DNA of 64,000 nt. Origin: Thermoanaerobaculia bacterium (lineage in GTDB: Bacteria; Acidobacteriota; Thermoanaerobaculia; UBA5066). Below, in pieces: positions 4,753-47,747 of this stretch. The notes under the pieces are model-generated. The model made no database searches and was not told where the DNA came from. It saw nothing but the letters and a program-made list of their open reading frames with translations. The first letter of the stretch is position 1; each line of letters starts with the position of its first letter. The stretch lies in contig CAWFJJ010000005.1 of NCBI GenBank assembly GCA_963816185.1, positions 1-64,000 of the forward strand, given 5' to 3'. The translations under genes were made by a program, and so were the position numbers.

Positions 4753-4919
4753 TGTACTTATCCTTCTGGCCAGTTTGTTGGTTTGACAGTTTGACGCATT
4801 CGGCTTCAAAAACTGTTCACGATTTCGGACAGAAACGGTCTTACCTCTCTCGCTCCAATTCGTCGATCGCTTTTGATCTGGGTTGCTCGGGTGACAACAA
4901 CAGGGGCGGACTGCTGCAG

Positions 4920-5600: not shown

Positions 5601-5746
5601 ATCCTGCCTCCCTTGCATTTGCTTGTTCTAGGACGCAGTCTCGATCAACTCCCTGTGAGTCCACAACCCCAAATGCTCCAGTCGCAGACTCAATAAATGG
5701 TCCGCCATGGGAATCCGCCTTTCGGCGGAGAAAGCGGAGATTTGTT

Positions 5747-6112
5747 TCAGGTTGTAATGTGTTTTCGTCCGAAAAGACGGGCATCAATGGACCATGCTCC
5801 CGGTCCGATCATTGCGATGGTGGCACCGAGAATGGCAAGGACGATTGGAATCCATGGATCACTGCCGCTGACGAATGCGATCCACAGTTCCACCGCCACG
5901 ATCAAGCTTCCTACGACCGGGGTCCACAACCCAACAAGGAGAAGTATCCCGGCGCAGGCGGCAATCAACTGGGGAATCATCGATGGGGAAAAGGGTTTGC
6001 CCGCAGGCTCGATGATGCCGAAGCGAACGAGCAGAATCGCTGTCAGCATGCGTTGAAGGAGAAGACCTGCACCTGGCCAGCCGTTGGCGAATGTCGAAAA
6101 CAGTCGTTGCAA
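5747..6112 (-). CDS. small DoxX-like membrane protein
   Basis: Hydrophobic helices with a GPGAWSID motif; probable TTG start. Confidence 0.65.
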   Translation of the reverse strand: MQRLFSTFANGWPGAGLLLQRMLTAILLVRFGIIEPAGKPFSPSMIPQLIAACAGILLLVGLWTPVVGSLIVAVELWIAFVSGSDPWIPIVLAILGATIAMIGPGAWSIDARLFGRKHITT

Positions 6113-6157
6113 AAACTTTCTCCTGTGAAATCGTAAGAGAATTGCAACGAAATCGAA

Positions 6158-6198
6158 ACCCTTCAAAGTTGGAGGCGGCGATCCTACTTTTGGGGGAG
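6158..6198. promoter_or_regulatory. possible NarL-type regulator boxes
   Basis: Two imperfect palindromes, CCCTTCAAAGTTGGAGG and TCCTACTTTTGGGGGA, just downstream of the NarL-type gene. Confidence 0.3.
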
Positions 6199-6199
6199 A

Positions 6200-6832
6200 T
6201 CACAGATCAATGATGCCGCGCTTCAGTCCGATGGTCACGGCGTGGGATCGATCGTTGGCGCCAAGTTTGGACAATATATTTGAAACGTGGCTCTTGACGG
6301 TCGCTTCGCCGATCGAGAGTTGATCGGCAATCTGCTTATTTGCGTTGCCGGCAGCAACCAATTTCAATACGTCAATTTCGCGTTCTGTCAGCGCGTCATC
6401 GGTTGCATGTTCTGCCAGTTGCGCGGCAATCTCTGGTGGAATTCGTTTTTGTCCCGCGTGAACGGCACGGATCGCATCGAGCAGTTCCTTGTGCACGTGG
6501 CCCTTAAGTATGTAACCTCTGGCTCCCGCTTTAAGAGCCCGAAGGACTTGCGTGTCGCCACTATATGTTGTCAAAACGATGATCCGGGCGTCGGGAAATT
6601 CTCTGCGAATGCGATCGATCGCATCGATTCCATCCACTTCGGGCATCTGCAGATCCATCAACGTAACATCCGGCCGGTGAGATCGGAACGCGTCGATGGC
6701 CTCTTTGCCATTCGACGCCTCTGCGACCAACTTCAAGTCAGGTTCACCGTTGACTAAAGCAGCGATGCCTTTCCGCAACAGAGGATGATCATCGACGGTC
6801 AAGATGCGAATCAGGTTAGGAGGGTTCTGCAC
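6200..6832 (-). CDS. NarL/LuxR-family response regulator
   Basis: VDDHPLLR receiver and LTEREIDVL..TVKSHVSNILSKL HTH. Confidence 0.92.
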   Translation of the reverse strand: MQNPPNLIRILTVDDHPLLRKGIAALVNGEPDLKLVAEASNGKEAIDAFRSHRPDVTLMDLQMPEVDGIDAIDRIRREFPDARIIVLTTYSGDTQVLRALKAGARGYILKGHVHKELLDAIRAVHAGQKRIPPEIAAQLAEHATDDALTEREIDVLKLVAAGNANKQIADQLSIGEATVKSHVSNILSKLGANDRSHAVTIGLKRGIIDL

Positions 6833-9800
6833 GATTTCTTACCTTACGAAGCAATCTAGCCACTATACCTTCGCGTGAAGCCTCATAGGCGACGGCGGCG
6901 GGAACGGTGAGCTGAACCTCAGTGCCGGCACCAGATTCACTCCAAAAATCCACTTGCGATCCAATCCGCTCGGCGCGTTCACGGATACCCCGCAAACCCC
7001 AATGCCCGGGACGCCCGCCTTCCTTCAGCACCTTAGGATCTATACCTCTACCATTGTCACGGATTCGAAGACGGAGTATCTGCTTATCGTGCCGGATCTC
7101 CGCTTCAATCCGAGTGGCGTTTGAGTGTCGAAACGCATTTCTCAAGATTTCAAAAGCAACTCGACAGATCTCGTCTTTAGATCGCGGCAGACAGGGGTCG
7201 GCGTTCGCCTTCCTCGATCAAATCGAAAATTGGTGTCTTCCCATCCGCAGATGCTGTCAATTCCTGCATCGTGATTTTCAGCAACTCGACAAGATTGTCC
7301 TGCGCGATTGCCCCGGACCGTAAACCTTGAATCGCATCCCGACTCTCCGCGAGCGCTTTTTCAGTCTCTTCGATCGCATCGTCCAGAGATCGCGTTGCCT
7401 CATCAGGGCGTCGAGGCAGCAGGTTGCGAACTGCTTGAAACTGAAACATGAGGCCGTGAAGAGTTTGCAGCAGCGTATCGTGTAGATCTCGCGCGATTCG
7501 AGTTCTTTCGTTGACGCGGGCTTCCAGTCCAATGTTGAATTGCCGATGCAATTGTTGAACCCGTAGTTGATATACAGCTAGCGCGATAAGGACAAGGATC
7601 CCGACGCCCGCTGCCTGGAACCAGCGTGTTTGGAGTATAGAGGGCTCCACTTCAAACGCAATTGCAGCTCCACTGGAGTTCCACACACCATCTGGATTGC
7701 TCGCGGCGACCTGAAATTCAAACCGTCCGGGCGCAATGTTCGTAAAGTCAACCTCGCGCAAGGGGGTGGGCTCGCTCCACGAGGAATCGACATCAGCCAA
7801 TCTGTAGTGGTATCTCACTCCCTCGGGGTTTGAGACGTTAATGCCGGCATATTGGAAGGTCAAGCGGTGTCGGCCGGACGATATATGGATATGGTCGACG
7901 GGTGCGATGTATTTCCCGTCCACAAGCATTCCTTCGATTCGCATCGTGACGGGGAACGCTGGATCAGCAAACGCCGAAGCTGGTAAAAATGAAATTCCCT
8001 GTTTCAGAGAGAACCAGATGTTCCCACGACTATCCAACTCGACCGATCGACTACGCTTGACGCCCTCCACGCTCGGTAGGCCATCGGTGACGCCGAATTC
8101 ACGGTAGTCCCCGTCGGTGTACGCCTGTTTCAGCACAGCCGAAGATCTCACTCTCAGAATGTGATCCGAGGTGGCGATCCAGAGCCATCCATTTTTCTCC
8201 GCGATCCCGAGAATATCGCCATAGAGCGCGGTTGGCGCCCCTAACGGAACGTGCACGACGCCGGATCGCAAGAACGCAATTCCTTTTGATGTGCCGACCC
8301 ATAACGTATCGTCGCCATCCAGGAAGAGACTCTCTATCGCACCGGGCGGCAAACCATCGTGCGTGTTGTAGCGGGTCCACCTGTCATTCTTTGAACTCGG
8401 CGAGGCCGTCTGGCGTGCCGACAAAGATCAGCCCGGATTCATTCCCGGTGATTACCGAGATTCTGTTGGAGGGCAGCCCGTCTTTTGTAGTGAAGGTATG
8501 CCACTTGCCATTGCGTAAGCGGCGGAGCCCCTGGTGAAGTGTTCCGGCCCACACCGTGCCATTCGGTTCGCGATACACAGAGTAAACGGCATCCTGGATA
8601 GACTCAATTTGTTGCGTCGGCAATCGCACGGCGTCGCCCTCCACAATCAGCCGTGCGATGCCGCCATTTCTTCGCGCGACCCAAACTTCACCGGCCGCTC
8701 CGGCAATCGAATAGACTATGTCATTCTTCAGCCCCGCAATTTCAATCGACTGAACTCTGCCGTGCGAGATGTGAAATAGTCCACCATCTGGCGGAGCAAA
8801 CCACACATTCTGATCGGAGTCGGCGTAAACCGCACCACAATTACTGCACGGCAGACCGCCCGAGCTACGATAGGTGATGAAAGCACTGTCCTGGTAGCGC
8901 TCAATCGTCTCTGGTTCGCCAATCCAAAGATTACCGTCGCGATCCTCAAATAATGCGGTGACCGCGCGGTTGCCGTTGACCATCAACTGCTCGAGTGAAC
9001 GGATCTTGCCCCTGGCGTCGAAGTCTTTTGGGTCGACTTTAAAAACATGGCCTTCCGTGCCGATCCATATCCGACCCTTGAATCCGCTAGCCAGTGCCAG
9101 AATTTCATCATGTCCAGGCGTGGGACTAACTTCGCTAAATGAGTTGTTACCGTGGGAGATGAACAAGCCCTGCTTGGTTCCGACTAGCAGGGTTGTATTG
9201 GCGAGTGGGAGCAGGCAGTTGATCCTCTTGTTCTTTAGACTGGGTACCTGCAGCAGGGACGCTTCGCCTTTTTCAGGTCTGAACTGAAACAAACCCTTCT
9301 CTGCAGTGCCGATCCAGATTGTTCCGTCCGCAGTTTGCGTCACCGCTGTCGGCGGTCCTGGCACGGCGCGAGCTTCCAAGAGGACTTGACGTTGACCATG
9401 CTTGTATTCCACTATGCCCTGCAATTCAGATACAAACAATAACCAGCCGTCGAAGGTCTTGCTCACTGCACTGACTGCATAGGCATGTCTGCCGTTATCA
9501 GGGACCGGGCCTTTCAGCAGGCCTGCCTCGTAATTGAATAGGCGCGTGAAGTCGTCTGAGGCCCACAATTGGCCACTGGCGTCTACCAATACGTTTGGGA
9601 CGAACCCGAACGAGAGATCGTTGGAGTTCGCTTTACGAATGAATTCAAAGTTCAAGCCATCGTACCTAATGAGCCCATTGCTAGTTCCGAACCAGAGATA
9701 GCCATCCGCCGTCTGGGTCATGGAATAGACGTGGCCACCGGAAAAACCAGATGCATGGTCCCAGGTGTTGTGGCTGCGACTGGCCGAAATCGAGTTGTCG

Positions 9801-9862
9801 ACGGCACTCAACGATGCGCTGGCCGACAGAAGAAATAGGATGAGGCCTGGAAGCGTTTTCAT
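6816..9862 (-). CDS. sensor histidine kinase: beta-propeller repeats + Y_Y_Y + HisKA_3/HATPase (two frameshifts)
   Basis: Three ORFs (8384..9862, 7177..8424, 6816..7145) join: DGYLWFGT repeats, ERTRIARDLHDTLLQ, NAFRHS..DNGRG..GLRGIRERA. Confidence 0.85.
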
Positions 9863-9883
9863 GCCTATGGGAGCTCAGGTCAA

Positions 9884-10993
9884 CTAGGGCAAGAATTCAA
9901 AGTGATCCACGACAACCTCAGCACGATGTTGAATCGTCGGCAATTTACGATTCGGGTCGGAGTAGGCGAAAAGGGCCATCCGCACAGATTCATCCACCGG
10001 TCTGGGAACCTCGTCCGTAAAGACATGCCTGGAAATGAGGCGGGTTTCCTTCCCCGACAGTTGCTCGGTGAGCATGGTGACCCGTCCCTCTTCCCAGACG
10101 ATTGTGTGTCGCAGTTTGCCGCCCGGTGCCTTGAATCGCGACATGTTCAGCGGTAGAAAAGCCGGTTGGACTACATACTGCGCATTCTCGTTTACGTTCT
10201 GCGGGTCACCCCAACGACTGATATTGATATCGAACTCACCGTGACTTCCCTGATTTGACGAATGATCCCAGGTGAAGATTTCGAAAAAGGCTGCCGGGTC
10301 CAAATTCGAAGTATCTTCCACCGTGAACAGATAGGTGCCGTAACCCAAGCTACGCGTCACATTAACCTCGGAACAGGTCCATTGGTTGTTGCGGTTGACA
10401 ATCTGTAGATGAAGCGCTCCGGATTGATCGACATAAACGTTGTTGTGATCGTAAGGGTTCCTTGTTCCTCCTCGGTCGCTGGATACTTTTCGAACCCGCC
10501 ACTGGAATCCGCTGAAATTTACAAAAAAGGACGAGGATCGTTCCTGCCCGGGGCTGGCGGCGACCCTCTCTATCCCGTGCCCAACCTTCGGCAACTCGGT
10601 CAGTACTGCCGCTGGATGGTAGCTCGAATCCACCAGTAAAGCGGCGTAGTCGGTGGCAAGGTGCACCTCGTTTCGCCAGACACCGTCTGGCAAAATTGGT
10701 GTGAAAGGAGAATTCAATCGCGGTTGCAGCCACCACAAGCCTCCGGTCTTGGAATAAACGACCATATTCTGGCCCGGACGTGACCCACTCACGGTGCCCT
10801 CAATCACATCTTCCTGATTCAGATCCCCGAGATCCCATTGCGGCACTTGGGTAAACAAAATTGTCGATTCGATGGAGGGTTGCGCTGCCTTATGACAAGC
10901 CGTCAGCAACAATAACAATCCCGCGATCGTCAGAATCGCATTGGGACGCAGTCCTGTACCGTGCTCGAATTCACCCCAGACATTGTGGAGCAA
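9884..10993 (-). CDS. lipoprotein with a GH16/ConA-like C-terminal domain
   Basis: Lipobox LLTAC; LGYGTY..GEFDINISRWG. Confidence 0.6.
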   Translation of the reverse strand: MLHNVWGEFEHGTGLRPNAILTIAGLLLLLTACHKAAQPSIESTILFTQVPQWDLGDLNQEDVIEGTVSGSRPGQNMVVYSKTGGLWWLQPRLNSPFTPILPDGVWRNEVHLATDYAALLVDSSYHPAAVLTELPKVGHGIERVAASPGQERSSSFFVNFSGFQWRVRKVSSDRGGTRNPYDHNNVYVDQSGALHLQIVNRNNQWTCSEVNVTRSLGYGTYLFTVEDTSNLDPAAFFEIFTWDHSSNQGSHGEFDINISRWGDPQNVNENAQYVVQPAFLPLNMSRFKAPGGKLRHTIVWEEGRVTMLTEQLSGKETRLISRHVFTDEVPRPVDESVRMALFAYSDPNRKLPTIQHRAEVVVDHFEFLP

Positions 10994-11159
10994 TTGAATC
11001 CCTCCCGATCCCTTCCTGGCGGTATCAGTGCGTTCGGAACTAGCGCAGAGAGCGGTTGCAGTCAGAGAGCATAGCTGATCTGGCAGGATCGGGGCTAGCG
11101 GACGACCATTCCTGTCTCTTCGGTTGTGGCGACATCAATTGGCAGCGAACGCTCGGAAC

Positions 11160-11366
11160 CTATCTTTCTTTGACTTTCTGCGCCAGCTCGCGAAAGTCTT
11201 TGGCTTGTTGGTGACTGACCTTCGCTTGGATCTGCGCGAGCTGTCGAGATTTCTCATTGGGGAGGTGCGAAACCAAAGCTTCAAGTTCGGTCGCCGCCTC
11301 GTAGGCCTGGTCAGCCTCTTTGAGCATCAAATGTTCAAACTTCCGGACTGCCTCATTGTGATCCAT
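11160..11366 (-). CDS. small helical hypothetical protein
   Basis: RBS GAGGAGGG before MDHNEAVRKFEHL. Confidence 0.6.
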   Translation of the reverse strand: MDHNEAVRKFEHLMLKEADQAYEAATELEALVSHLPNEKSRQLAQIQAKVSHQQAKDFRELAQKVKER

Positions 11367-11875
11367 GTTTCCCTCCTCATGAAAGTTTGGCGGAGACGAA
11401 AAATGTAATATCGCGATTTGACCATCGCTGTCTTCCTCGTTCGAACATACTTCCACTAGTCGAAAGCTCCTCACAGACAATTGCAATTAGGCCAGAAGCG
11501 CGGCCAACGAGTCTATTAGACGAAGGTATCGATCGACAATTTTACACCGCAGGCGCGATCAGGTGCAGGCAAGCGGGAGAGCGTGCTTTTGCCGACGGGA
11601 TTTTTTACTATCAGACTGCACGGTCTGAAATAAATCGCCTATCTGACTGCTTGATACACCTTCCTAGGCATACAGGAACGGCCGCTCTCTGTGGCTTCTC
11701 CAGAAGTAGGCGAGGATGATCACACTTACAACTGCCGCGTACGTACACCATAACGAGGTGAACGCGTATCGCTTGACCTCCATTACAACCAGCAGTTCGC
11801 GGTGGCTGAGAAGCAGATCGTCGGTCTTTCGGAACGCAAAACAACGGACCAACCGATGTTGGGGGTAGGCGCGGT

Positions 11876-12499
11876 TCAACGCTTCTGGTAGGGGTGGAAG
11901 ATGTAGTCTTTCGCTTTCACTGCCGTGTGGCACGCGTGTCCGCAGTCCGAGAGGCTTTTGGGATCGGGCGTAAACTTGTCCGAGGCGGCATCGTAGTTGA
12001 ACACCGCGTATCCCCAGCCACCGCTGTTCGGAAATCTCTTGCTGTCCTTTTCAATGACGAAAGCCTCAGCGAAAGACGTCCGGCACATCCACAACAAAAG
12101 GGGCCTCCGTGCTCTTCTTCGGCTTCCACTGGAGCTTCACGATCATGGAGCCATCGGGGAATGCCTGGCCGTTGACGGGAATACCGGCTTTATACGCTTT
12201 GATCATCGTCGGATTGGCGACGATCACCTTGAGCCTTTCGTCGGTTCGGGAGGAAGAGACGACAGCCCAATCCTCGTATCCCCGGAAGTCGGAGAACGCG
12301 ATTCCGCCGGGCGATTTCAGCGAGTACTTATCATTGTCCTTGCCTTGCGCGTAAAGGGCCACGGCGCCAAGGACGGCGAGCGCTGCCGCGGCTGTTGCAA
12401 CGATGGTAAAGCCGGCGATACGCTGCACAGCGGTGCGGTTTTCTATCTTCTGTTCCTGTTGTTCTTGCGCGCACAACTTTCGTCACAAGCTCAGACATG
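11876..12499 (-). CDS. cytochrome P460-family protein (frameshift ~12070)
   Basis: FPDGSMIVKLQW, EKDSKRFP..GGWGYA..F, C-terminal CGHACHT..KDYIF. Confidence 0.8.
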
Positions 12500-12584
12500 G
12501 TGTGTTCTCCTTCACAAAGTTTCCCGATCCCGATCGACGTGCATCTCGAACGGCTGCCATTAGGCCAGACGTGGAGGAGCAAGA

Positions 12585-12746
12585 CAATTGGACGATGGTA
12601 TCGACGATACCTTCGTATCGGGAGGGTATGACGAGCCTTCCTTATTTTGGATCGATCTTCAGTGCTAATCGGATGGAGCTGCATGCCTCAGGCATGAAGA
12701 GCACTGCACTCGATACATAAGGGTGGGCAATACCATCGTCCAATTG
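12585..12746. promoter_or_regulatory. perfect 17-bp inverted pair of operator-like boxes in a divergent promoter region
   Basis: CAATTGGACGATGGTAT (12585-12601) and ATACCATCGTCCAATTG (12730-12746); a variant lies at 11513-11529. Confidence 0.6.
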
Positions 12747-12962
12747 CGCGACCCCATTGAGTTCTGGCTGAATGCTGACAGACTTTATTTCGTCGAGTGG
12801 TTTATAGCACGCGGGCGAGAATTTCGGATCGATGTTCTAAGTTGCTGAAATTGTCGGGCGTCCTGTGTGCATTTGCTGCGACGAATGAACGACAAACGGC
12901 AATGGCTATCGTCGGTTTTAATCAACCGGTTTTCGAGGCCAAGTAATACGGAGAAAAATCCC

Positions 12963-13868
12963 ATGGCAACTATGAGCGTACCTGCCAGTCTCACACAGAT
13001 GAACCCACCTACGAAACCGGCACAGATTCGCGTGGCCCGGCGGTCGCCCGCCTATTGGCGTGTCACGGTCGACAACCCGCCCATCAACGTCATGGGCCCG
13101 GAAATGGTCAAGCAGTTCCAAGAAGTCATCGCTGCACTCGAGGCCGACGAGGATGTCAGGGTCGTGGTCTTCGACAGCGCAGTCGATGACTACTTCCTGA
13201 ATCACTCCGACTTCACGGCCAAGCTTGAGGAACTGACCGCGCTGCCTCCGGGTCCCACAGGCTTGCCTCCTTGGCCGGACTTTCTCGTGCGTCTGACCCG
13301 ATTGCCAGTCGCATCCATCGCCCTCATCCGCGGCCGCGCGACCGGCAACGGCAGCGAGATCACGCTGGCCTGCGACATGAGTTTTGCCAGTCGCGAGAAG
13401 GCCATCATCTCGCAATGGGAGGTGGGCGTGGGGATGGTCGCCGGCGGCGGCCCAATGGCTCGCCTGCCCCGGCTCATCGGCCGAAACCGCGCGCTCGAGG
13501 TGCTCTTAAGTTCGGAAGACATCCGAGCAGACCAGGCCGAGGCCTACGGCTACATCAATCGCGCTCTGCCCGACGCCGACCTGGATGAGTTTGTAGAGGC
13601 GCTCGCGAGCCGGATTGCCAAGTTCGACAAATGGGCGATCGCGCAGACCAAGCGCCTCGTCAACACCAGCCTGCCGCCGGACGTTGAGCTCGGCGCCGGG
13701 TGGGATGCGTGCATCGCATCGCTCGGGCGACCCGCTGCTCAGGAGGGGATCAAGGAGCTGATGGCGCGCGGGCTTCCACAAGCCGGGGGATGTCGAAAAT
13801 CGGCTCGGATACTACCTGGGCCAAATCGCGCGCTAGGCGAGCGGGACTCGGGACATTCGTATTTGTAA
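12963..13868 (+). CDS. enoyl-CoA hydratase/isomerase family protein (C-terminal frameshift)
   Basis: DNPPIN, GRATGNGSEITLACDM, GRNRALE. Confidence 0.85.
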   Translation: MATMSVPASLTQMNPPTKPAQIRVARRSPAYWRVTVDNPPINVMGPEMVKQFQEVIAALEADEDVRVVVFDSAVDDYFLNHSDFTAKLEELTALPPGPTGLPPWPDFLVRLTRLPVASIALIRGRATGNGSEITLACDMSFASREKAIISQWEVGVGMVAGGGPMARLPRLIGRNRALEVLLSSEDIRADQAEAYGYINRALPDADLDEFVEALASRIAKFDKWAIAQTKRLVNTSLPPDVELGAGWDACIASLGRPAAQEGIKELMARGLPQAGGCRKSARILPGPNRALGERDSGHSYL

Positions 13869-13895
13869 TGAGCACTGTATCGAAAGGAGCCATCA

Positions 13896-14341
13896 ATGAA
13901 CGCCGTACAAGTCGAACAGAAGAGCTATGAGATGCCCCCGCGCGAGGGGATCAGCATCGCGCATTTTCTCACCGTCGCCGACGTCGAGCGATCGGCTCGC
14001 TACTACGAAAAGGTCTTCGGCGCTCGCATTCTGACCATGGGTGACGGCAACGCGCCTCCGTACCTTCAGCTTGCGAATATCTGGATGATTCTGAACGTTG
14101 GGGGCGGGCCGACCCCGGATAAGCCGACGGTAACGCTCAGCGTCCCCGACCCGAATCACATCAACAGCTTTATGAATTTCCGCGTTGCGGATATTCAAGC
14201 GTGCTACGAATTATGGAAAAGTCGAGGAGCGGAGTTCATCACGCAGCCGATACCCAAGTACGGCGAGATTCGCTGCTACATCCGCGATCCTGACGGTTAC
14301 ATTATCGAGGTCGGACAGAGCACCGATCTCAGTACGGTTAA
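13896..14341 (+). CDS. VOC/glyoxalase family protein
   Basis: LTVADVERSARYY..IRDPDGYIIEVGQ. The true stop is probably TAA ~14339 after a 1-nt indel. Confidence 0.85.
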
Positions 14342-14483
14342 CGCTTCGGCGCGGATGAGGATGCCGACTCTGCGCTTCAGATCGTCGCGGCTTCTGCCAA
14401 TCTTGCCTTGAACAGTCACTCGCTCTGACATCGAAAGGAGTACCAGATGGATCGGCACAAATGGACTGAAAGAGACCACGCGC

Positions 14484-15337
14484 GTGACCGCGCCTGTCGC
14501 GTCGAACACGCTGAGTGTGAACGTTTTTACGGCTCCGGGAAAGACTATGGTCGGCGAGCGGCCAAAGCCCTTCGGCGAAGCGCTCGGCTTTGACCCGATC
14601 ACGTCGACTTTAATCTTCGGCGAGTACGACGCGGTGCTGGTGGACGCAATGGGGACGGTGGCTGAGGCCGAGGCTCTCGCGGATTGGGTCGCTCTGCACA
14701 ACCGCAACCTGGAGACCATCTATATAACGCACGCCCATTTCGACCACTTCTACGGTCTGAGCATTCTGCTCGACCGTTTCCCGGGCGCTCGGGCGATAGC
14801 AACGCCCAAGGCGGTGAACGCCATGCAGATGTCTTTCACTCCCGCAGTGGAGCGGCTGGCCCGCCGGATGTTTCCTGGGCAAGTGGCCACCAAGTTGGTT
14901 CCACCTGAGCCCTATGAGCACGACACGTTCACTCTCGAGGGCCACGAATTGCGCATCATCGAGCAGGGCCGCACCGATAGTCCCGATTCGACGTCTCTCT
15001 ACGTTCCATCGATCGGCCTGATCGTCGCTGGCGACGTTGTGTACAACCAATGCCGCATGTACGTCGGCGACACCACCCCCGAGAGCCGAAAGAATTGGAT
15101 CGCGGCGCTGGACCGGTTAGCGGCGCTGAACCCGGCGATTGTTGTCGCCGGTCACAAGAAGCCTGGCGCGCCCGACTCTCCCTCGACGATCCAGGACACC
15201 AAGCGTTACCTCAGGACTTCGATCGGGTGCAGAAAACCGCGACGTCCGACCAGGAGCTGTTCGATCAGATGACGGAGCTGTACCCGCATTGGGTAGCCAA
15301 TCAGTCGTGGTTGATGTTCGGATTCCCCGGAGCATAA
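14484..15337 (+). CDS. MBL-fold metallohydrolase (frameshift ~15210)
   Basis: THAHFDH, AGDVVYN and AGH motifs. Confidence 0.85.
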
Positions 15338-15445
15338 CTCACATCAACCGCGGTAGCCGGTCCTTGCGCACTTTGGAGGAAGCCGCGGACGATGAGCTAG
15401 CTCATATTCAGGAGAACAGAATTCGATTTCAAAGAGGAGAACAAA

Positions 15446-16258
15446 ATGACAACAAAAGGAAAAGTCTTGGTGCTAGTCTCGAGCGGTCACGGCTTGCCCT
15501 TGAAAGATGGCAAGGTTTATGCCGGCGCTGGCTACTATCTCAACGAGCTGACGGTTCCGGTTCGCGCCCTGATGAAGGAGGGCTACGAAATCACTTTCGC
15601 CAACCCCAAAGGCAACACGCCGCAAATGGATGTCCATTCAGCTGTAGCCGATTTCTTCGGTGGGGACGAGGCTAAGCTTCAGGACTATCTAAAATTCCGC
15701 GACACCCTGACTGGGCTCAAAAATCCAACTCGTATCTCGGATGTCATCGCATCGGGCCTGGATCAATATGACGCTGTTTTCGTCCCCGGCGGCCATGGCC
15801 CGATGATGGATCTTCTCGATGATCCCGACGCGGGCACCGTGATGAGACACTTTCATGAAACATCCAAGCCTACGGCAGTGCTCTGCCATGGCCCGATTTC
15901 ACTTCTCTCGGCGCTTCCGAATTCGACGGAGGTGGTCGCCGCGCTGGCGGCGGGCGATGCCGCTGGAGCACACGCAAAGGCTCAAGGCTGGATCTATTCC
16001 GGATATAAGATGACCATCTTTTCGACAGCGGAAGAGCAGCAGCGGGAGCCGCTTGAGATTGGTGGTAAGGTTCTCTTCTACCCGGACTTCGCCTTGCGTA
16101 CTGCGGGCGGTGACGTAAGTGTGGTCGCTCCATGGAAGAGCTACGTCCTTCAAGATCGCGAGTTGATCTCAGGTCAGAACCCGTTCTCGGACGAAGCGCT
16201 TCTGAAACTTCTTCTACCGGCACTCGATGGGAAGAAGAAGTCGGTTTCAGCGGCATAA
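15446..16258 (+). CDS. DJ-1/PfpI (type 1 glutamine amidotransferase-like) protein
   Basis: GYYLNEL, PGGHGPM, LCHGP and SGQNPFS motifs. Confidence 0.88.
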   Translation: MTTKGKVLVLVSSGHGLPLKDGKVYAGAGYYLNELTVPVRALMKEGYEITFANPKGNTPQMDVHSAVADFFGGDEAKLQDYLKFRDTLTGLKNPTRISDVIASGLDQYDAVFVPGGHGPMMDLLDDPDAGTVMRHFHETSKPTAVLCHGPISLLSALPNSTEVVAALAAGDAAGAHAKAQGWIYSGYKMTIFSTAEEQQREPLEIGGKVLFYPDFALRTAGGDVSVVAPWKSYVLQDRELISGQNPFSDEALLKLLLPALDGKKKSVSAA

Positions 16259-16336
16259 GAATCGGGGACGCCCATCGTTTACACGACGCATGTTGCCATG
16301 CCTTCGCCAGTCGAAGTCCGAGAGAAGGAATTGCCG

Positions 16337-17223
16337 ATGAATCCCGTGGCATTATCGCACCATACAGGTCGATGGCCTGTCGATTTTCTATCGAGAGGCT
16401 GGGCCGAAAAATGCGGAAACACTTCTACTGCTGCACGGACTTCCATCGTCGTCGCGGATGTTCGAGCCGCTTTTCGCACGGCTATCGGATCGCTACCATC
16501 TGATAGCGCCTGATTATCCCGGATTCGGACACAGTGACTGGCCGGACCCGAAGAAATTCGCATATACGTTCGATCATTTCGCCGAGATCATGGACCATTT
16601 CACCGAGGCGCTGGGACTCTCGCGTTACACCGTTATATATGCAGGACTACGGTGGCCCCGTCGGCTTTCGCATGGCTCTGGCGCATCCGGAGCGAGTCGA
16701 GGCGCTGATCGTGCAGGACGCCGTCGCCCACAACGAAGGCCTGGGAGCAAATTGGAAAACACGCCGGGCATTCTGGGCTGATCGCGCTGCCAATGAGAGC
16801 GCATTGCGCACCAATCTCTTGTCGCTCGAGGCCGCGCGCGCGCGACACGTCGGAAACGATCCCGACGTGGAGCGCCACGATCCCGACCTCTGGACCGACG
16901 AGTTTTATTTTCTGAATCGGCCCGGCCAGGCCGAGATCCAGAGCGATCTTTTCTACGACTACCGAACCAATGTGGAGTCTTATCCGAAGTGGCAGGCCTG
17001 GATGCGCGAAAAACAACCGCGGCTGCTCGTGATCTGGGGCAAATACGAAACATCGTTTGACCCGAGCGAGCCGGAGAGCTATCGCAAGGATGTTCCGAAC
17101 GCCGAAGTCCACATTGTCGACGGTGGCCATTTCGCCCTGGACACGGCTGCCGATGAGATTGCTGCCTTGGTGAAAGGCTTTATGGCGTCTTCCCCGGAGG
17201 TGAGGGCTCGGCGTGCTGGTTGA
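16337..17223 (+). CDS. alpha/beta hydrolase (frameshifted)
   Basis: IFYREAG..LLHGLPSS..APDYPGFGHS..QDYGGPVG..GHFAL. Confidence 0.8.
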
Positions 17224-17308
17224 GATGATCGATCATGCGGAGACTGTTCAAGTTGTGCCGGGAGTCAGATTAATCGGTACGGTATCAACGGAATAGGAGC
17301 CGACATCA

Positions 17309-17575
17309 ATGAGCGGCATACAAATCGAACAAAACGAGCTATGAGATGCCCCCCGCGCGAAGGATTCACCATCACACTTTTTATCACCGTCGCCGACATC
17401 AACCGAGCGGCTGATTTCTATGAAAAGGTGTTCGGCGGCCGCATTCTGAGCAGAGGCGATAGCAAGGGCGCGTCCGGGCACATTCAGATCGCGAATACCT
17501 GGCTGATTGATCAACGTCGGGGTCGGGCCCACGCCGGACAAGCCGACGGTAACGCTCAGCGTCCCCGAACTTCGA
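17309..17575 (+). pseudogene. truncated paralog of the VOC gene at 13896
   Basis: Shares EMPPREG..YEKVFGGRIL..GPTPDKPTVTLSVP with the first copy, then stops. Confidence 0.7.
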
Positions 17576-17679
17576 AGGCATCTTCACAGATGTTTCCGAG
17601 CGCTGTCGATATACGATGCGGCCGGAAACGCCTGCGGTCTAAAGGAAGCGGTTCATCTGCTGCCTACCCTATAACGGGT

Positions 17680-18033
17680 CTAGTTTAGAAGCGATTCCCA
17701 GTTGGCCGGCACCCTGCCTGCGGGTCCAGGTGCGGGCTGACTTTCGGGATGCGCGTGCGGCGGAAGCAATTCCAGACCCTTGATCATCCCCTGCTTCTCG
17801 TAATCGAAGAACCAATCCTCACCCGGCTCAAAGCTGGTTATGATCGCGTGCCCTGTTTCCGCCGCATGCTTAGATGCATGCTGACTTGGAGAGCTGTCAC
17901 AGCATCCGATGTGGCCACACTCCGCACACCGGCGGAGATGAAACCACCAACCTTTCGGTGACGCCAGGCATTCAACACATCCGTTTCCGCTTGGTTTCGA
18001 AGCGGCGTTGATTCCGCGCCGGTCTCTTCTCAT
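17680..18033 (-). CDS. UBP-type zinc finger protein
   Basis: CVEC..HLRRCAECGHIGCCDSSPSQHASKH..SFEPGEDW. Confidence 0.85.
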   Translation of the reverse strand: MRRDRRGINAASKPSGNGCVECLASPKGWWFHLRRCAECGHIGCCDSSPSQHASKHAAETGHAIITSFEPGEDWFFDYEKQGMIKGLELLPPHAHPESQPAPGPAGRVPANWESLLN

Positions 18034-18071
18034 TTTCGATCTTCCTTTTGTTTCGCGTCCGCCAGAGAATC

Positions 18072-18780
18072 TCAAGCCACCAGCAAGATCTTCCCGACAG
18101 CACCCTTCTCTGCCTCTGCTTGAGCTTCGGCTGCTTCACTGAGCGGCAGTTTCTGGCTAATCGGGATTACCAACTTGCCATCTCGCACGGCCTCGGCCAT
18201 GAACTCGAGCGTTTTCCTGTCAAACTTCGAGAATACGAAAACCACCTTTACAGAGGGTACTGTGCCGGCGTTCTGCGGTGTCCCGACAACCGACGCATAG
18301 ACTCCTCCCGGCGTGACCTTGGCGATTAGCTTCTCGGCAGTTCTTCCGCCGACTGTATCCGCCACTGCATCGAGCGGCGGAAGATTCGCAATCGCGGAGT
18401 CGTCGTCGGTTGCGACGACCTGATCCGCGCCGACAGTGTTCGCGCTCTCGATCTGCTTGTTCAACACCCCCGCGATCACAGTCGCCCCGCGTTGTTTTGC
18501 AGTGAATACCGCTGAACGCCCGACGTTTCCAGCAGCGCCCACGACGAGAACCGTCTGGCCTGCTTTGATCCCGGTAGCGGACATGAGTTGGTTGCCGGTC
18601 ACCGTCACCAAGGGCAGCGCTGCCGCCTGGATCAAATCGAGTCCCTTGGGAACTTTCGCCAGAATGGCGGTGTTTACAGCGCAAAGTTCGGCGTAAGTAT
18701 TGTCCGCCATGGCGAATACCTGGTCGCCAACAGAAAAGCCTTCTACTCCGGGCCCAATCTTAATCACGGTTCCTGCGATG
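18072..18780 (-). pseudogene. NADP-dependent quinone oxidoreductase (MDR family), 5'-truncated
   Basis: AGTVIKIGPGV..AAALPLV..GAAGNVG..GKILL. The N-terminal part is replaced by the antisense of the rSAM gene. Confidence 0.8.
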
Positions 18781-18782
18781 GC

Positions 18783-20021
18783 GTCGTGGAAGGTTCGCGG
18801 CTCTTCTGTGTGGACCAGGATTTCTTCGCGAGGCTTCGGAGCGGCAATTCGGAGGCCGAATCGGAGATGACCACCGCCGCGGGAGAGGCGGCGCCGGCGG
18901 CGGAGTTCGCAGAGGGCTTGCCCGAACCCGCGGCCATTTCTCTCAACGTCGCCCAATCGTGCAACCTGTCGTGCTCGTACTGCTACGCCGACGAGGGACG
19001 TTTCGGGGGCAAACGGCGGCTGATGCCCCTGGATGTGGCTCTGCAGGCGATCGACCGTCTGATCGACGGCGCCGCGGGCCGGCGGGTGACGGTCGGCTTT
19101 ATCGGAGGCGAGCCGTTTCTGAACCGCGAGGTGCTTTACGAGAGCGTCGCGTACGCGGTCGAACGGGCGCGAGCGCGGGGCTGCACCGTCGGGTTCTCGG
19201 TGGCGACGAACGGGACCCTGCTCAACGCAAGCGACGTGCGCCTTCTGCGCAACGACGGCTTCGCGGTGTCGGTGAGCCTCGACGGGAATGCCCAAGTGAA
19301 CGACAGGCATCGCCGCGCGCCCGGGGGCGCCAGCGGATACGAATCGGCGCTTTCCCGCTTGCGCCCGCTCCTGGAAAGCCCGGGGAAAGCGCGCATCGCG
19401 GCGCGGATCACCGTGGCGCGAGACGACTTGCGAGTCGCCGAACGAGTGGAGGCGCTCGCCGGCGCCGGCTTCGCCGAGATCGGCGTGAGTCCCTTGCGCA
19501 CGAGCCCGGTTCCGGGCCTGGTCCTCAGAGACGAGGACTGGGCGGTATTCCTGGCGGAGATGGTGCGGGCCGCGGAACGCGAATGGCAGCGGCTGAACGA
19601 GGGCGAGGGCTTCCGCTTCTCGAATCTCGCGATCGCCGTGAAACAGCTCCACGCCGGGTTCGCCAAGCCCCTCCCGTGCGGCTCGGCAGCGAACTACGTG
19701 TCGGTGAGCGCGGAGGGCGGGTACTTCACGTGCCACCGCACGATCGACGATGCGTCGTTTTCTCTCGGAACGATCGCAGGAGGCTTGTCCACGACCCTGC
19801 GCGAGAGCTTCCTGAAGGAGAGGCACGTGGACCGGCAGGAGCCGTGCCGCAGCTGTTGGGCGCGGTACCTCTGCGGAGGCGGGTGTCACGCCGAGGTCCT
19901 TTCGGCCGGGCGCAGCGGATGCGACTACATCCGGGGGTGGCTGGAGTACTGCCTTCGGTTCTACGACCGCCTGTCGCGGGAGCGGCCGGACCTGCTCGGA
20001 GAAAGGCGGGAGGTGGCTTGA
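18783..20021 (+). CDS. radical SAM/SPASM-domain protein (thioether-forming QhpD/ranthipeptide-like); 5' end apparently truncated
   Basis: CNLSCSYC, GGEP, SLDG; SPASM motifs PCG..TCHR..CRSCWARYLCGGGCH..C. Confidence 0.88.
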   Translation, partial: VVEGSRLFCVDQDFFARLRSGNSEAESEMTTAAGEAAPAAEFAEGLPEPAAISLNVAQSCNLSCSYCYADEGRFGGKRRLMPLDVALQAIDRLIDGAAGRRVTVGFIGGEPFLNREVLYESVAYAVERARARGCTVGFSVATNGTLLNASDVRLLRNDGFAVSVSLDGNAQVNDRHRRAPGGASGYESALSRLRPLLESPGKARIAARITVARDDLRVAERVEALAGAGFAEIGVSPLRTSPVPGLVLRDEDWAVFLAEMVRAAEREWQRLNEGEGFRFSNLAIAVKQLHAGFAKPLPCGSAANYVSVSAEGGYFTCHRTIDDASFSLGTIAGGLSTTLRESFLKERHVDRQEPCRSCWARYLCGGGCHAEVLSAGRSGCDYIRGWLEYCLRFYDRLSRERPDLLGERREVA

Positions 20022-21711
20022 TGGAGAAGATCTTTCCGCTGAACCTGACGGCGCGGGCCGCCGCGATGGTGACAGGAAACCCGGCGACGACGCGCCTCGA
20101 GGGCGGAGTTGGCAATTGCTTCCCAGGCCTGGAGTACGACCACCGCAACCTCGACCGGCGCTTCTTCCCGGGGTTGGTATTCCAGTTCGGGTCCTCCCGG
20201 GGCGCGCCGCTCTTGAAAGTGGATCCGGACGATCCGGATCTCGACCCCAAGACCTTCGAGGGACTCCTGCGCGATGCTCCGGATCCCCAGGTCCAGAGCG
20301 CCTTGCGTATGGCGCTCAGCGGCGCGGACCCGGGGGTCCAGAGTGCCTTACGTGCGGCGCTCGGCGGCAATCCGGGCAAGATATTGCTGGAAGGATCGTG
20401 GTTTCTCGACTCGATCAAGCAGTCCGGCAGGACCATCGCGGTGCGTGACCTCGCCGGCCTGACGGTCTGGCGCCTCGTGCGATCTCTCGAGCCCGGGCCC
20501 CTGGAGATCGTGCTGACGCGAAGCGCCGGAACGCCGCGAAAGATCACGCTCGAGCGGCTGGCGGCGGAGATTCGTGAGCACGAAGACCGGCGTCATCAGC
20601 GAGGCCTTTCAGCCGGGAGAGCTGACGCAGAGTCTGTGCTCGCCGTGGATGCACGATTTCCGCGATTGCGCATGCACGTACTGGGCGTCGAACCACCCCG
20701 ACATCGTCCTGGTCGAGCAGCCGTCGGGAGCGGAACCGGATCCCGTGTGGGAGGAAACGCCGGTCGACTGGCTGCGCTCCGACCGCACGCTGGCCCGGAC
20801 CGCAGCGGCGGTCGGAACGGAATCGGGAAACCGCAACGCGCAGATGGATCACTACGAGATCAACGAGCGCTGGCAGGATCTTTCCGTCGTCCTTCTGGGA
20901 CACGAGATCTCCAGCGCCTTCCCGGCGCGGGAGTGCGGATGCCGCGAATCCGTTCGAGACTGCCGACGAGCTGGCGACGACGCTGGTGGGCTTGGCCACG
21001 CTCGAACACGCGGTGGCGCTCGAGTACCTGTACGCGATGTACTCCGTGATGGACCCGTCAAAGGCGGCGGGCCAGAGTCTCAAGGACGCGGTGACGTTCG
21101 TGCAGCACGAAATGCTGGTCATCGCGGTGAGCGAGATGCGGCACCTGCGCTGGGCGAACCAGCTCCTGTGGGAGCTCGAGCACGCCGGGCTCACGACGAA
21201 GCGTTTCGGGCCGTCTCTCGGCGTTGCCGCACAGGTGCCGGGCGTGAACGGGCCGCGGGCACCGCAGCTTCGAGTTCTCGATGCCGCGACGCTCGACGAC
21301 TTCATCGCGATCGAGAAGCCCAGCGGCACTCTCGACGGCGCTTACGCGCGGGTCCTGGCGACACTGAGGCGGCAACCCCCTTATCCCGCGCCTCTCGAAC
21401 AGCTGGCCGGCCGGATCCTGGCGGACGGCATGCAGCATTACACCCGGTTCCGGGAGATCAAGAGGGTCCTCGAGCCGTTCTCGGGCGGGAATCCGCCCGC
21501 ATACCTCCAGACCCTCACGAAGGCGAGCCGCACGGAGGCGAAGAAGGCAGTCGATCTCTACGCGGGGATCCTCGCGGATCTTCGGGGCGCCTACGAGTCC
21601 GGCGACATGGAAGACGCGGCGCTCATCGCCAGGGCGCGCACCGTCATGTTCGAGCTGGACGCCGCCGCCGATGCGCTTGCCACCGCCGGCAAGGGCGTAC
21701 CATTTTTCTAG
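20021..21711 (+). CDS. LodA/GoxA CTQ-motif domain fused to a ferritin-like domain (two frameshifts)
   Basis: TGATG overlap with the rSAM gene. Motifs NCFPGLE and PGELTQSLCSPWMHDFRDCACTYWASNHPD, then LEHAVALEYLYAMYS..EMRH..IEKP..DGMQH. Confidence 0.7.
20279..20368 (+). repeat. 45-bp in-frame tandem duplication
   Basis: PDPQVQSALRMALSG / ADPGVQSALRAALGG. Confidence 0.8.
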
Positions 21712-21727
21712 AGAGGAGGCCCTCCCC

Positions 21728-23242
21728 ATGAGCGCGAAGCACGGTCTTCCCTTACGCGGTCTGATGTCGACCGGGTTCTCCGCGGCCTTCGAAGGCCGAT
21801 TCGGGCGGATGTTCCGATCGCAGCGTCCCGCCGTCTTCGGAGCGACGGAGGCGGACAACCTCGCGAACCTCGCCAGACTCGGTGACGCGATGTCGAATGC
21901 GTTCGACCCCCCGAAGGACGGCAAGGACGACGAGGAAAGCGGCATCCCGGCGCTCTACACGTACTTCGGCCAGTTCGTCGATCACGACATCACGTTCGAC
22001 CCCGCCAGCAGTCTCCAGAAGCAGAACGACCCCGACGCGCTGGTGGACTTCCGTACCCCCGCGTTCGACCTGGACAACGTTTACGGGCGCGGGTCGGACG
22101 ATCAGCCCTACATGTACGACGGAGGGGACTCGTTTCTGCTCGGCGACCCCATCCAGGGCGGAGACGCGAGCGCGAGGGACCTGGCGCGCAACAGCGCCAC
22201 GCCCCGTCGCGCGCTCATCGGAGATCCGCGCAACGACGAGAACTCCATCGTCTCGCAGCTTCAGGGGCTCTTCCTGCGATTTCACAACCGCACACGAAAG
22301 GACAACCCCGGCCTCGACTTCGGCGAGGTCCAGAAGAAGGTCCGCTTCCACTATCAGTACGTCGTCCTGAACGACTTCCTGCCGCGAATCGTCGACTCCT
22401 CGGTGCTGAACGACCTGAAGTCGGCGAACCAGTACGACCGGGCCAAGATCAAATTCTTCCACTGGAAGCACCAGCCGTTCATGCCGGTCGAGTTCTCCGT
22501 CGCGGCCTACCGTCTGGGGCACTCGATGATCCGCCCCGGCTATCGCCTCAACGATTCCATCCTGCTTCCCATCTTCCCGGTCCCCTCTTCGGTCGCCCCC
22601 GGTTTCCCGGAGGGTCTCACGGGATTCCGCGCCATGAATCCCGCCTGGGGAATCGACTGGGGGCGGTTCATCGACATCGACATCCGCGACTACGACGGCA
22701 GCGACGCGGTCAAGGCCAAGCGGCTGCAGTTCGCGTACCGGATCGACACTTCGATCGTCAACCCGCTGAAGAACCTCCCGGCGGCCGTCGCGAGCAACCC
22801 GTCCTCCCTCGCGCAGCGAAATCTCGAGCGCAGCTGGCGCCTCGGCCTTCCCTCGGGGCAGGACGTCGCCCGCGCCATGGGCCTCAAGCCGCTCGATGAC
22901 AAGGACATTCTCATCGGTCAGGGCGTGGACAAGCCGGACGCACCGCTCCCGAACATCGTCGCGGCCGCCGGCCCGGTGTTCGCGAAGAACTGTCCGCTCT
23001 GGACCTACATCCTCGCGGAGGCGATGCACTTCAAGGCGCCCGTCAAGATCCCGGTCAAGAAGGCCGTCACCGTCAGCACGCCGAGGCTGGGCCCCGTCGG
23101 AGGGCGCCTCGTGGCCGAAGTCTTCCTCGGCCTCCTTTTCGGCGACAACAACTCCTTCCTGAGTCAGGCGCCGTTCTGGCAGCCCGAGAAGAAACCAGAC
23201 TATGCGCTGAAGGACTTCGTGAACTACGCCCTGGGAAGCTGA
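21728..23242 (+). CDS. heme peroxidase (peroxidase-cyclooxygenase superfamily, bacterial)
   Basis: YTYFGQFVDHDITFD, GDPRNDEN, AYRLGHSMIR, GLPSGQ, PLWTYILAEA, LGPVGGRLVAEV. Confidence 0.9.
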   Translation: MSAKHGLPLRGLMSTGFSAAFEGRFGRMFRSQRPAVFGATEADNLANLARLGDAMSNAFDPPKDGKDDEESGIPALYTYFGQFVDHDITFDPASSLQKQNDPDALVDFRTPAFDLDNVYGRGSDDQPYMYDGGDSFLLGDPIQGGDASARDLARNSATPRRALIGDPRNDENSIVSQLQGLFLRFHNRTRKDNPGLDFGEVQKKVRFHYQYVVLNDFLPRIVDSSVLNDLKSANQYDRAKIKFFHWKHQPFMPVEFSVAAYRLGHSMIRPGYRLNDSILLPIFPVPSSVAPGFPEGLTGFRAMNPAWGIDWGRFIDIDIRDYDGSDAVKAKRLQFAYRIDTSIVNPLKNLPAAVASNPSSLAQRNLERSWRLGLPSGQDVARAMGLKPLDDKDILIGQGVDKPDAPLPNIVAAAGPVFAKNCPLWTYILAEAMHFKAPVKIPVKKAVTVSTPRLGPVGGRLVAEVFLGLLFGDNNSFLSQAPFWQPEKKPDYALKDFVNYALGS

Positions 23243-23267: not shown

Positions 23268-23304
23268 AATACCGGACATCGGTCAGAACCCGATGTCCGG
23301 TATT
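23268..23304. terminator. hairpin between convergent genes, probably a bidirectional terminator
   Basis: 15-bp perfect stem AATACCGGACATCGG/CCGATGTCCGGTATT. Confidence 0.7.
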
Positions 23305-47732: not shown

Positions 47733-47747
47733 CGCGGCCCTGACGCC

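Follow-up and report, generated by a model that had tools for sequence, protein, structure and literature searches.

A 64,000-nucleotide stretch of DNA from a Thermoanaerobaculia bacterium (assembly GCA_963816185.1, contig CAWFJJ010000005.1, positions 1 to 64,000; the whole stretch is called the window and the genome G000 below) carries three co-oriented genes, encoding a radical S-adenosylmethionine (rSAM)/SPASM enzyme, a middle protein that joins a quinone-cofactor-like domain to a ferritin-like domain (FUS), and a heme peroxidase (Table 1). The TGA stop codon of the rSAM gene (20019-20021) overlaps the ATG of FUS (20021-20023) by one base, giving TGATG, and the TAG of FUS (21709-21711) is followed after a 16-nt gap, which contains GAGGAGG, by the ATG of the peroxidase gene at 21728. 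The hairpin behind the peroxidase gene has a folding energy of -31.9 kcal/mol (z -3.9; 0 of 200 shuffles fold equally well), and it is without a T tract and goes unreported by a consensus terminator scan. An earlier note on this DNA, made from its letters, had described exactly this arrangement of three co-oriented genes, coupling, ribosome-binding site and 3' hairpin, and all of it is present in the sequence. Its delimitation of the unit does not stand, as position 18783 is an assembly junction, with the start of the rSAM gene lying on another contig (C6) of the same genome, and the three genes are the 3' part of a five-gene locus that reads flavoprotein (divergent), A556, rSAM, FUS, and peroxidase.

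Table 1. Coordinates of the locus and of adjoining features in the window
Feature	Position	Strand	Remark
Foreign DNA from misassembly, outside the locus	1..18782		GC content, public contigs
rSAM/SPASM gene, QhpD-like	18783..20021	+	First 29 codons absent, on G000 contig C6 87->1
Middle gene FUS	20021..21711	+	LodA_C-like cofactor domain and ferritin-like domain; single gene, two 1-nt insertions
First frameshift, one surplus base	20552..20554	+	Base missing at 20552 (X1), 20554 (X2, X5)
Predicted cofactor loop	20637..20702	+	P0001: C206-x5-D212-x3-C216-x-C218-xx-W221-x5-D227
Second frameshift, one surplus base	20933..20934	+	Base missing at 20933 (X2), 20934 (X1, X5)
Ferritin-like (PF12902) domain, candidate di-iron ligands	20938..21708	+	Pfam 50.0 bits, cut-off 22.3
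GAGGAGG ribosome-binding site of peroxidase gene	21713..21719	+	Sequence reading
Heme peroxidase gene, peroxidase-cyclooxygenase superfamily	21728..23242	+	Pfam An_peroxidase
Perfect 15-bp hairpin	23268..23304	+	Between the convergent peroxidase gene and minus-strand gene

The GC content is 55-58% in window positions 1-18782 and 64-73% in the rest of contig C5, compared to 67% for the genome, whose 30 contigs all lie at 62-69%. At about 18780, a minus-strand gene for a Zn-dependent dehydrogenase (18072 to about 18800; Pfam ADH_zinc_N_2, ADH_zinc_N, and ADH_N on the truncated open reading frame (ORF)) loses its N-terminus. Using the proteins of L002, an intact related locus from a Terriglobia metagenome-assembled genome, as queries against G000, we found that the end of contig C6 encodes A556 (C6:1754->87) and the divergent flavoprotein (C6:1814-2980), and that the N-terminus of the L002 rSAM protein is matched by the 29 residues encoded in the final 87 bases of C6, from which the reading frame runs on into window position 18783. 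The intact L002 protein likewise aligned by tblastn to FUS in three different frames of the window (20021-20515, 20556-20930, and 20938-21705).

Upon aligning the contigs of four public sequencing runs (X1, X2, and X4 from one study, X5 from another) to positions 18300-21800, we found no public contig that spans 18779-18782. Record 1 of X1 and record 23 of X5 match the window from 18782 onward, and the sequence that they carry before this position is identical to the end of C6 in X1 and nearly the same in X5 (a relative at 95-99%), while contigs coming from the left diverge from the window at 18779 (X4 record 17) and 18761 (X5 record 22). In run X5, the depth is about 25-30 to the left of the junction and 5-7 to its right. 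At both frameshifts, every covering contig (X1, X2, and X5, i.e., three of three runs from two studies) has one base fewer than the window; X4 has no cover at either frameshift, and stretches uncovered in single runs were not counted as evidence. The best-matching runs may be the source samples of the genome, and they are therefore independent of the assembly rather than of the organism. We are close to certain that positions 1-18782 were joined to the locus by a chimeric assembly and that FUS is intact in nature; the foreign part probably came from another organism in the sample. It is because of this chimera and of the indel errors that the locus seemed to be missing a flavoprotein.

The flavoprotein adjoins A556, two genes upstream of the rSAM gene. 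Its top three NCBIfam matches are QhpG (93.2 bits), GoxB (47.7), and LodB (39.9), all under their cut-offs, and no flavoproteins other than these three are known to mature the cofactor cysteine tryptophylquinone (CTQ). The QhpG equivalog NF049967 has a cut-off of 240 bits, with the L002 flavoprotein scoring 53.8. The sole PDB match of the G000 flavoprotein at E<=0.01 was QhpG (7CTQ, E 3.5e-7). The earlier note had seen no flavoprotein among the three genes and had proposed on that ground a different route to a tryptophylquinone or a cross-linked protein. With a QhpG/GoxB/LodB-like flavoprotein beside A556 on C6 of the same genome, this premise fails; intact homologous loci likewise carry a LodB-like gene, a finding that the note had named beforehand as speaking against its proposal.

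To describe the family at large, we used a set of 81 loci, comprising the best 80 of 476 relatives on metagenome contigs together with L002, of which 21 are well flanked (3.5 kb or more to either side of FUS). Neighbors were counted with hidden Markov models (HMMs) of the five proteins, which were built from the first tblastn hits, i.e., from the hits themselves; they replaced a clustering of all ORFs of the 81 loci, in which overlapping spurious ORFs of the GC-rich DNA had lumped separate families together. A556 was present in all 21 well-flanked loci, the rSAM gene in 19, the flavoprotein in 18, the combination of these three in 18, and the peroxidase in 2. The exceptions are L061, with a weak flavoprotein match only, and L068 and L077, with neither rSAM nor flavoprotein. 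Across the 81 loci, two gene orders occur, with the rSAM gene before FUS in 33 and after FUS in 27, and 21 fragments contain no rSAM gene. Hence, of the gene neighborhood that the earlier note had suggested checking, the conserved rSAM partner was borne out, while neither the peroxidase as a conserved partner nor the absence of a lodB-like gene was. Large SAM-domain/adenylate-cyclase/AAA regulators adjoin 18 of the 81 loci (e.g., L036:281-3613).

The family is widespread beyond this set. FUS has 649 representative clusters at E<=1e-3, 185 of them at E<=1e-30, and, among 8000 candidates scored, at least 1421 clusters at 90% identity, with at least 1439 for A556; where members are named, the names are 'hypothetical', 'ferritin-like', and, once, 'rubrerythrin'. 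The locus is rare in the own lineage of G000, occurring in 0 of 40 relatives, and 4 of 401 genomes in a sample of the phylum gave a match, G000 included. Cultured carriers have it on plasmids, in Nostoc, Bradyrhizobium, Rhizobium, Microvirga, Mesorhizobium, Mycetohabitans, Streptomyces, and Embleya, and the same locus parts were confirmed on the plasmids of Nostoc, Bradyrhizobium, Mycetohabitans, and Streptomyces. The L002 locus is flanked (641-2425 and 9353-10602) by a phage terminase large-subunit gene (Terminase_6N/6C) on one side and, on the other, by minus-strand ORFs that resemble another terminase piece and have no Pfam match, which hints at a mobile or prophage setting of this locus.

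The N-terminal half of a LodA-like protein is the best available description of A556. The protein has 556 residues, is 57.7% identical to its L002 counterpart, and gave no Pfam match even at E<=10; none of the proteins of its family carries a Pfam domain. Its neighbors by protein language model are LodA clusters (one of them, with LodA_N in 26% of its members, at a score of 0.98), and its family profile has a weak match to GoxA in the PDB (E 0.03). As a reference, we aligned ten LodA-like proteins from genomes of the same phylum, in which LodA_C is above its cut-off in 9 of 401. Against this alignment, the A556 family matched by hhalign over 272 columns of the N-terminal half (probability 96.7%, E 3.1e-10), and the FUS family matched the C-terminal cofactor region (85.5%, E 5.7e-6). 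The A556-family HMM also found five of eight canonical LodA-like proteins at E<=4e-6. The FUS family profile (A1) reached neither GoxA nor LodA in the PDB at E<=10, neither A556 nor FUS had a PDB match at E<=1 when used as a single sequence, and an Atlas look-up of the full protein returned its own family only, with a stored model of poor quality (pLDDT 0.55). A PDB match of the 76-residue motif region to a haloalkane dehalogenase (E 1.4) was dismissed as chance.

Several gene arrangements indicate that the two proteins work as one. Natural A556-FUS fusions of 1110-1201 residues account for 4 of 13 long representatives, fused ORFs were also found in L020 and L063, and in G424 a single chain of ~720 residues consists of A556 followed by the FUS cofactor domain. 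This chain lacks a ferritin part; a ferritin-like protein has its own gene upstream, and the rSAM and flavoprotein genes follow downstream. In G380, Bradyrhizobium, and Mycetohabitans, the cofactor domain stands alone as a protein of about 260-300 residues. We hold with high confidence that the gene set is conserved and belongs to the wider LodA-like superfamily.

The cofactor domain of FUS contains a loop, C206-S-P-W209-x-x-D212-x-x-x-C216-x-C218-x-x-W221-x5-D227 in P0001, in which six residues (C206, D212, C216, C218, W221, and D227) are invariant in all 53 aligned homologues and in all 81 loci. The G424 protein is collinear with GoxA (6BYW) at 315-383 and 663-689, and the second of these stretches places D212 on GoxA D678 and C216 on C682; Asp678 is the Asp close to the GoxA cofactor (PMC7876137). 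LodA has D512-x3-C516 at the position of D212/C216, with C516 being its CTQ cysteine (PMC4417212). By hhalign, D212 and C216 fall on the invariant D-x3-C of the LodA-like proteins and W221 on an invariant Trp. All eleven LodA-like proteins have an [FW]-W-[PA]-x-x-x-P block after the Cys, and the Trp of this block, on which W221 falls, lies 5 to 37 residues downstream of the Cys. Together with the Pfam match of the ferritin-like domain, these alignments bear out the statement of the earlier note that a LodA/GoxA-type cofactor site is fused here to a ferritin-like domain. A556, for its part, has an invariant Cys in a VDDTCD motif.

The same loop resembles QhpC, the small CTQ-bearing subunit of quinohemoprotein amine dehydrogenase (QHNDH). 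QhpC from a Paracoccus plasmid reads C27-x5-D33-x3-C37-x3-C41-W-W43-x5-D49, where C37 and W43 form CTQ and C41 and D49 a thioether (PMC7876137). FUS and QhpC share three identical spacings, C-x5-D, D-x3-C, and W-x5-D. QhpC has two further links, C27-D33 and C7-E16. Positions 206 and 218, which are Cys in FUS, are thioether Cys in QhpC, and Gly and Ala in GoxA. Some LodA_C proteins (L103, L104, and L105, also L108-L110, and P0391) have the conserved Trp 5-9 residues past the cofactor Cys; this short loop carries a WWP[AT]Q-x-P-[DN] block that is near-identical to WWPAQV-x-D in QhpC, and the QhpC HMM aligns at the right place to three short-loop proteins with 7-15 bits (11-sequence set). QhpC and the LodA cofactor loop may be related, to judge by these motifs.

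Among the loci, the extra Cys residues go with the rSAM gene. All 81 FUS genes have C206, C218, W221, and D227, and most adjoin an rSAM gene, while an rSAM gene was found in 0 of 10 regions (7-19 kb; seven with eight canonical genes and three with short-loop genes) around LodA-like genes without the extra Cys, 9 of which have a flavoprotein. The two extra Cys are linked to the presence of an rSAM gene.

The rSAM ORF itself displays a CxxxCxxC motif and a C-terminal Cys-rich SPASM motif, the two features that define the radical SAM/SPASM class, and it matches Pfam Radical_SAM with 58.8 bits (cut-off 29.5). Its best NCBIfam matches, all under their cut-offs, are QhpD (244.6 bits; 243.3-244.6 against the equivalog TIGR03906, cut-off 453), PapB (226.4), and the SCIFF maturase (214.2). 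It is 58% identical to the intact 446-residue gene product of L002, from residue 34 onward, and 30-31% identical to annotated QhpD/PeaB genes. The reading of this gene as a QhpD-type rSAM/SPASM enzyme by the earlier note agrees with this ranking of QhpD ahead of the thioether-forming PapB and SCIFF maturases. G000, which is 94.9% complete, has no match to QhpC (PF08992) or to the di-heme alpha subunit (TIGR03908, QH_alpha), and the enzyme therefore does not serve a classical QHNDH; nor did we find a second QhpD-like gene at E<=1e-10. The likely target of the rSAM enzyme is FUS itself, with no separate precursor peptide required.

Candidate di-iron ligands of the ferritin-like domain are E334, E377, H380, E438, and H479, five residues that do not vary among the 53 aligned homologues, and the FUS family profile matches bacterioferritins in the PDB (9viw, E 3.3e-5). 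A ferritin-like part, fused or separate, occurs in most loci checked for one; within the stretch read in G380, there is no ferritin-like gene. The third gene was correctly called a heme peroxidase, as it scores 56.7-56.9 bits against Pfam An_peroxidase (PF03098, cut-off 25), with putative heme binding, and in the PDB it matches lactoperoxidase alone at E<=0.001 (8S6C, E 7.4e-7). Homologues occur in six of the 81 loci (L005, L006, L016, L023, L035, and L054), and the peroxidase is an occasional accessory of the locus rather than the conserved partner that had been proposed. At L109 (G073:C59, 4710-10423), a peroxidase homologue (241.8 bits) is followed by ferritin-like, short-loop LodA-like, and flavoprotein genes, with no rSAM gene; the association of peroxidase and ferritin-like genes therefore recurs outside the rSAM-linked family.

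We suggest that the locus probably encodes a split CTQ-type quinoprotein of the LodA/GoxA kind with thioether staples made by the rSAM enzyme, a reading from sequence comparison that we favor while granting it appreciable doubt. In this proposal, A556 would be the N-terminal half of the enzyme and the first ~300 residues of FUS its C-terminal cofactor half, here fused to a ferritin-like di-iron domain. The QhpD-like enzyme would staple Cys to Asp in FUS, most likely as C206-D212 and C218-D227, as QhpD does in QhpC; the QhpG/LodB-like flavoprotein would hydroxylate W221; and C216 would join W221 to yield CTQ beside the conserved D212. The mature A556-FUS protein would then oxidize an amine or amino acid. 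The di-iron domain may join in the oxygen or peroxide chemistry, as may the heme peroxidase in G000 and the few other genomes with such a gene, with either acting as an electron sink, as an oxidant, or in the removal of H2O2.

Several observations weigh against this proposal. Which Cys pairs with which Asp is a guess. A second invariant Trp, W290 (53 of 53), lies 74 residues past C216, and both W221 and W290 are candidate counterparts of LodA W581, the PDB alignment ending at LodA residue 548, short of W581. LodA_C (PF18417, cut-off 25) gave 23.9 bits on the window piece and 22.9 in the genome search, with 14.2 on the intact L002 FUS; LodA_N (PF17990) was matched neither by A556 (E<=10) nor anywhere in G000 (E<=1); and the hhalign probability of FUS goes no higher than the value given above. 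L068 and L077, both well flanked, have the extra Cys and no rSAM or flavoprotein gene within 8-10 kb, and Pfam Trp_halogenase is the top match (70 bits) for flavoproteins from loci with the second gene order. As to QhpC, a four-sequence HMM misses FUS (5.3 bits for P0001, 10.4 for the best family member) and has its top match in G000 in another ORF, elsewhere, and Pfam PF08992 also misses FUS; the likeness is therefore a motif resemblance, and we do not claim homology, even if the shared motif may reflect a common origin. A sequence pattern with FUS as its single match in 10.2 million translated residues had been drawn up with both sequences already in view.

Other explanations account for part of these data. 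That the locus is not a quinoprotein system at all, and makes or modifies something else, such as a small tryptophan-derived molecule, we regard as unlikely; the flavoprotein would then be a halogenase or monooxygenase, the ferritin-like protein a di-iron oxygenase, the rSAM enzyme would have another target, and the Cys residues would bind metal or form disulfides. This would suit the halogenase-like flavoproteins just mentioned, which are annotated as tryptophan 7-halogenase, the BBE-type FAD oxidases that adjoin 12 of the 81 loci (e.g., L072:3619-5202, at a locus that reads A556-FUS-rSAM, and L077:4442-6136, at one that reads A556-FUS with no rSAM), a weak VioB match of the ferritin-like domain (E 0.0056), and the fact that the similarities to LodA and QhpC are all under curated cut-offs. 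LodB-type maturases, however, are themselves halogenase-like, with QhpG and GoxB being structurally similar to CmlS (PMC7876137), and the best matches of the G000 flavoprotein are precisely the known CTQ maturases; moreover, the Asp-x3-Cys and, putatively, the Trp align with the cofactor residues of LodA/GoxA, and in the regions examined the rSAM gene stands only beside Cys-bearing forms. A CTQ enzyme that differs in its details appears rather improbable. In such an enzyme, the quinone Trp would be W290, of the far type seen in LodA (C516 to W581), and the rSAM enzyme would make a different link, involving W221 or the Cys-Trp bond, or act on A556. The invariance of W290 at a distance comparable to the 65 residues in LodA (PMC4417212) fits this, as do the invariant Cys in VDDTCD of A556 and the LodA alignments, which end before W581, but hhalign sets W221 on a Trp that is kept in all ten LodA-like proteins, within a block that QhpC shares around W43, the short LodA-like protein L105 has a His where W290 would match (a position judged by eye), the CTQ residues C551 and W566 of GoxA fit the near Trp, and the best rSAM relatives make Cys-Asp/Glu thioethers.

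The proposal of the earlier note, a flavoprotein-independent route to a tryptophylquinone or cross-link by means of the rSAM enzyme, the di-iron domain, and the heme peroxidase, has become very improbable. No flavoprotein gene lies within 18783-23242 of the window, di-iron and heme proteins are plausible oxidants for such a route, and at L068 and L077 no flavoprotein lies near A556 and FUS; yet G000 has the flavoprotein gene on C6, which public contigs join to position 18782, and a flavoprotein is found in 18 of the 21 well-flanked loci versus 2 for the peroxidase. Scarcely credible is the idea of a decaying pseudogene with a truncated rSAM gene and a FUS that is truly frameshifted twice, which is how the window reads, other genes of the window also being split between frames: in the contigs of X1 and X2 (at least 99% identity), the extra bases are absent and position 18782 is continuous with C6, and the left flank differs in GC content and depth.

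The split-quinoprotein proposal can tentatively be taken one step further, although we lean against rather than toward this extension. The locus might encode a CTQ enzyme of a third type, a bridge between the two known types, combining a split LodA/GoxA fold, a QhpC-like stapled loop, a QhpD-like rSAM enzyme with a QhpG-like flavoprotein, and a di-iron partner, which would be a built-in redox module replacing the hemes of QHNDH or the free O2 of LodA. It would follow that the cofactor loops of QhpC and LodA_C share their origin. A WWP[AT]Q-x-P-D block is common to QhpC and the short-loop LodA-like proteins.

The surroundings of the locus offered some further observations. In the window, an alpha/beta hydrolase gene at 16458-17223 (+) consists of two overlapping ORFs in different frames (Abhydrolase_1 positions 16-74 and 76-243), and looks like the same type of indel error as in FUS. 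Convergent to the peroxidase gene, positions 23327-24822 (-) hold three overlapping ORFs in different frames that read like one secreted serine peptidase gene, with a GTSAGSP-type motif seen by eye and no Pfam match at E<=0.001; this is probably another gene broken by indel errors. A strongly negative AT skew (down to -0.39) at 46335-50740 is ordinary, being accounted for by two large genes in this stretch that encode Leu-, Ala-, and Val-rich membrane proteins. On contig C6 (L003), beyond the flavoprotein, follow a prolyl-oligopeptidase-like gene (4209-6458, -), identified by eye from its translation, and a large ABC exporter (8407-11589, +), which by eye reads with cyclic-nucleotide-binding and peptidase domains.

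The gene combination appears to be uncharacterized, as the earlier note had also judged: we found no description of this family in the searchable literature, a scope that leaves aside subscription journals and supplementary tables, and none of the four core proteins attains the cut-off of any model in NCBIfam release 20. If true, our proposal would describe a new class of enzyme with a protein-derived cofactor, an rSAM peptide maturase that acts on a full-size protein, and an evolutionary link between QhpC and LodA. The prediction is directly testable, as cultured strains of Nostoc, Bradyrhizobium, Rhizobium, Mycetohabitans, and Streptomyces carry members of the family on plasmids.

Among known systems, the maturases PapB and SCIFF come directly after QhpD among the NCBIfam matches to the rSAM enzyme (226 and 214 bits) and share its SPASM Cys motifs, but they act on short leader-bearing peptides, and the tightly packed operon of the locus has no precursor peptide gene. 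The maturation of tryptophan tryptophylquinone by MauG similarly pairs a heme protein with a tryptophylquinone-type site; the heme protein of the locus, however, is a member of the peroxidase-cyclooxygenase superfamily found in 6 of 81 loci, not a di-heme MauG, and the partner position in FUS is occupied by a Cys, not by a second Trp. Closer in gene content are the loci described by Campillo-Brocal et al. in 2015, who reported LodA fusions to catalase-like or PF14518 iron domains, and ferritin-like (PF12902) genes adjoining fungal lodA-like genes (PMC4417212). As here, a LodA-like gene can be accompanied there by divergent lodB-like and by ferritin-like genes, and the peroxidase and di-iron parts of our locus have a parallel in the coupling of LodA-like proteins to redox domains with heme or iron. 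By the main text of that paper, its supplementary gene lists aside, the proteins are ordinary single-chain LodA-like proteins, and rSAM enzymes go unmentioned.

The closest comparisons are with the CTQ enzymes themselves, of which a passage in a 2025 review names three only, QHNDH, LodA, and GoxA (PMC11951088). With LodA and GoxA, the locus shares an N-terminal half homologous to A556, a PW-x2-D-x3-C site followed by a conserved Trp, and an adjacent flavoprotein of the same kind. It differs in that two separate genes encode the halves of the enzyme (some genomes have them joined again, in another arrangement), in not reaching the curated models, in a Cys-to-Trp spacing of 5 residues in FUS versus 14-65, in the two extra invariant Cys, in the rSAM gene that 0 of 10 LodA-like regions have, and in the ferritin-like part present in most loci checked. 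The maturation of QHNDH, which uses an rSAM enzyme and a flavin monooxygenase together (PMC7876137), is resembled in that the rSAM enzyme and flavoprotein of the locus best match QhpD and QhpG, and in that the FUS loop has the spacings of QhpC (C-x5-D-x3-C...C..W-x5-D). Unlike QHNDH, the G000 locus is without a small leader-bearing gamma subunit and without a di-heme alpha match (the beta subunit, QhpE, and QhpF were not searched for); the motif lies within a cytoplasmic-looking protein of 560 residues, with two candidate staples compared to three in QhpC; and the scores fall far under the equivalog cut-offs. Known CTQ maturation is treated as two separate routes, by an rSAM enzyme plus a flavoprotein in QHNDH and by a flavoprotein alone in LodA and GoxA, whereas the present family, which is large, would bring both routes together on a LodA-like scaffold that is joined to an iron domain.

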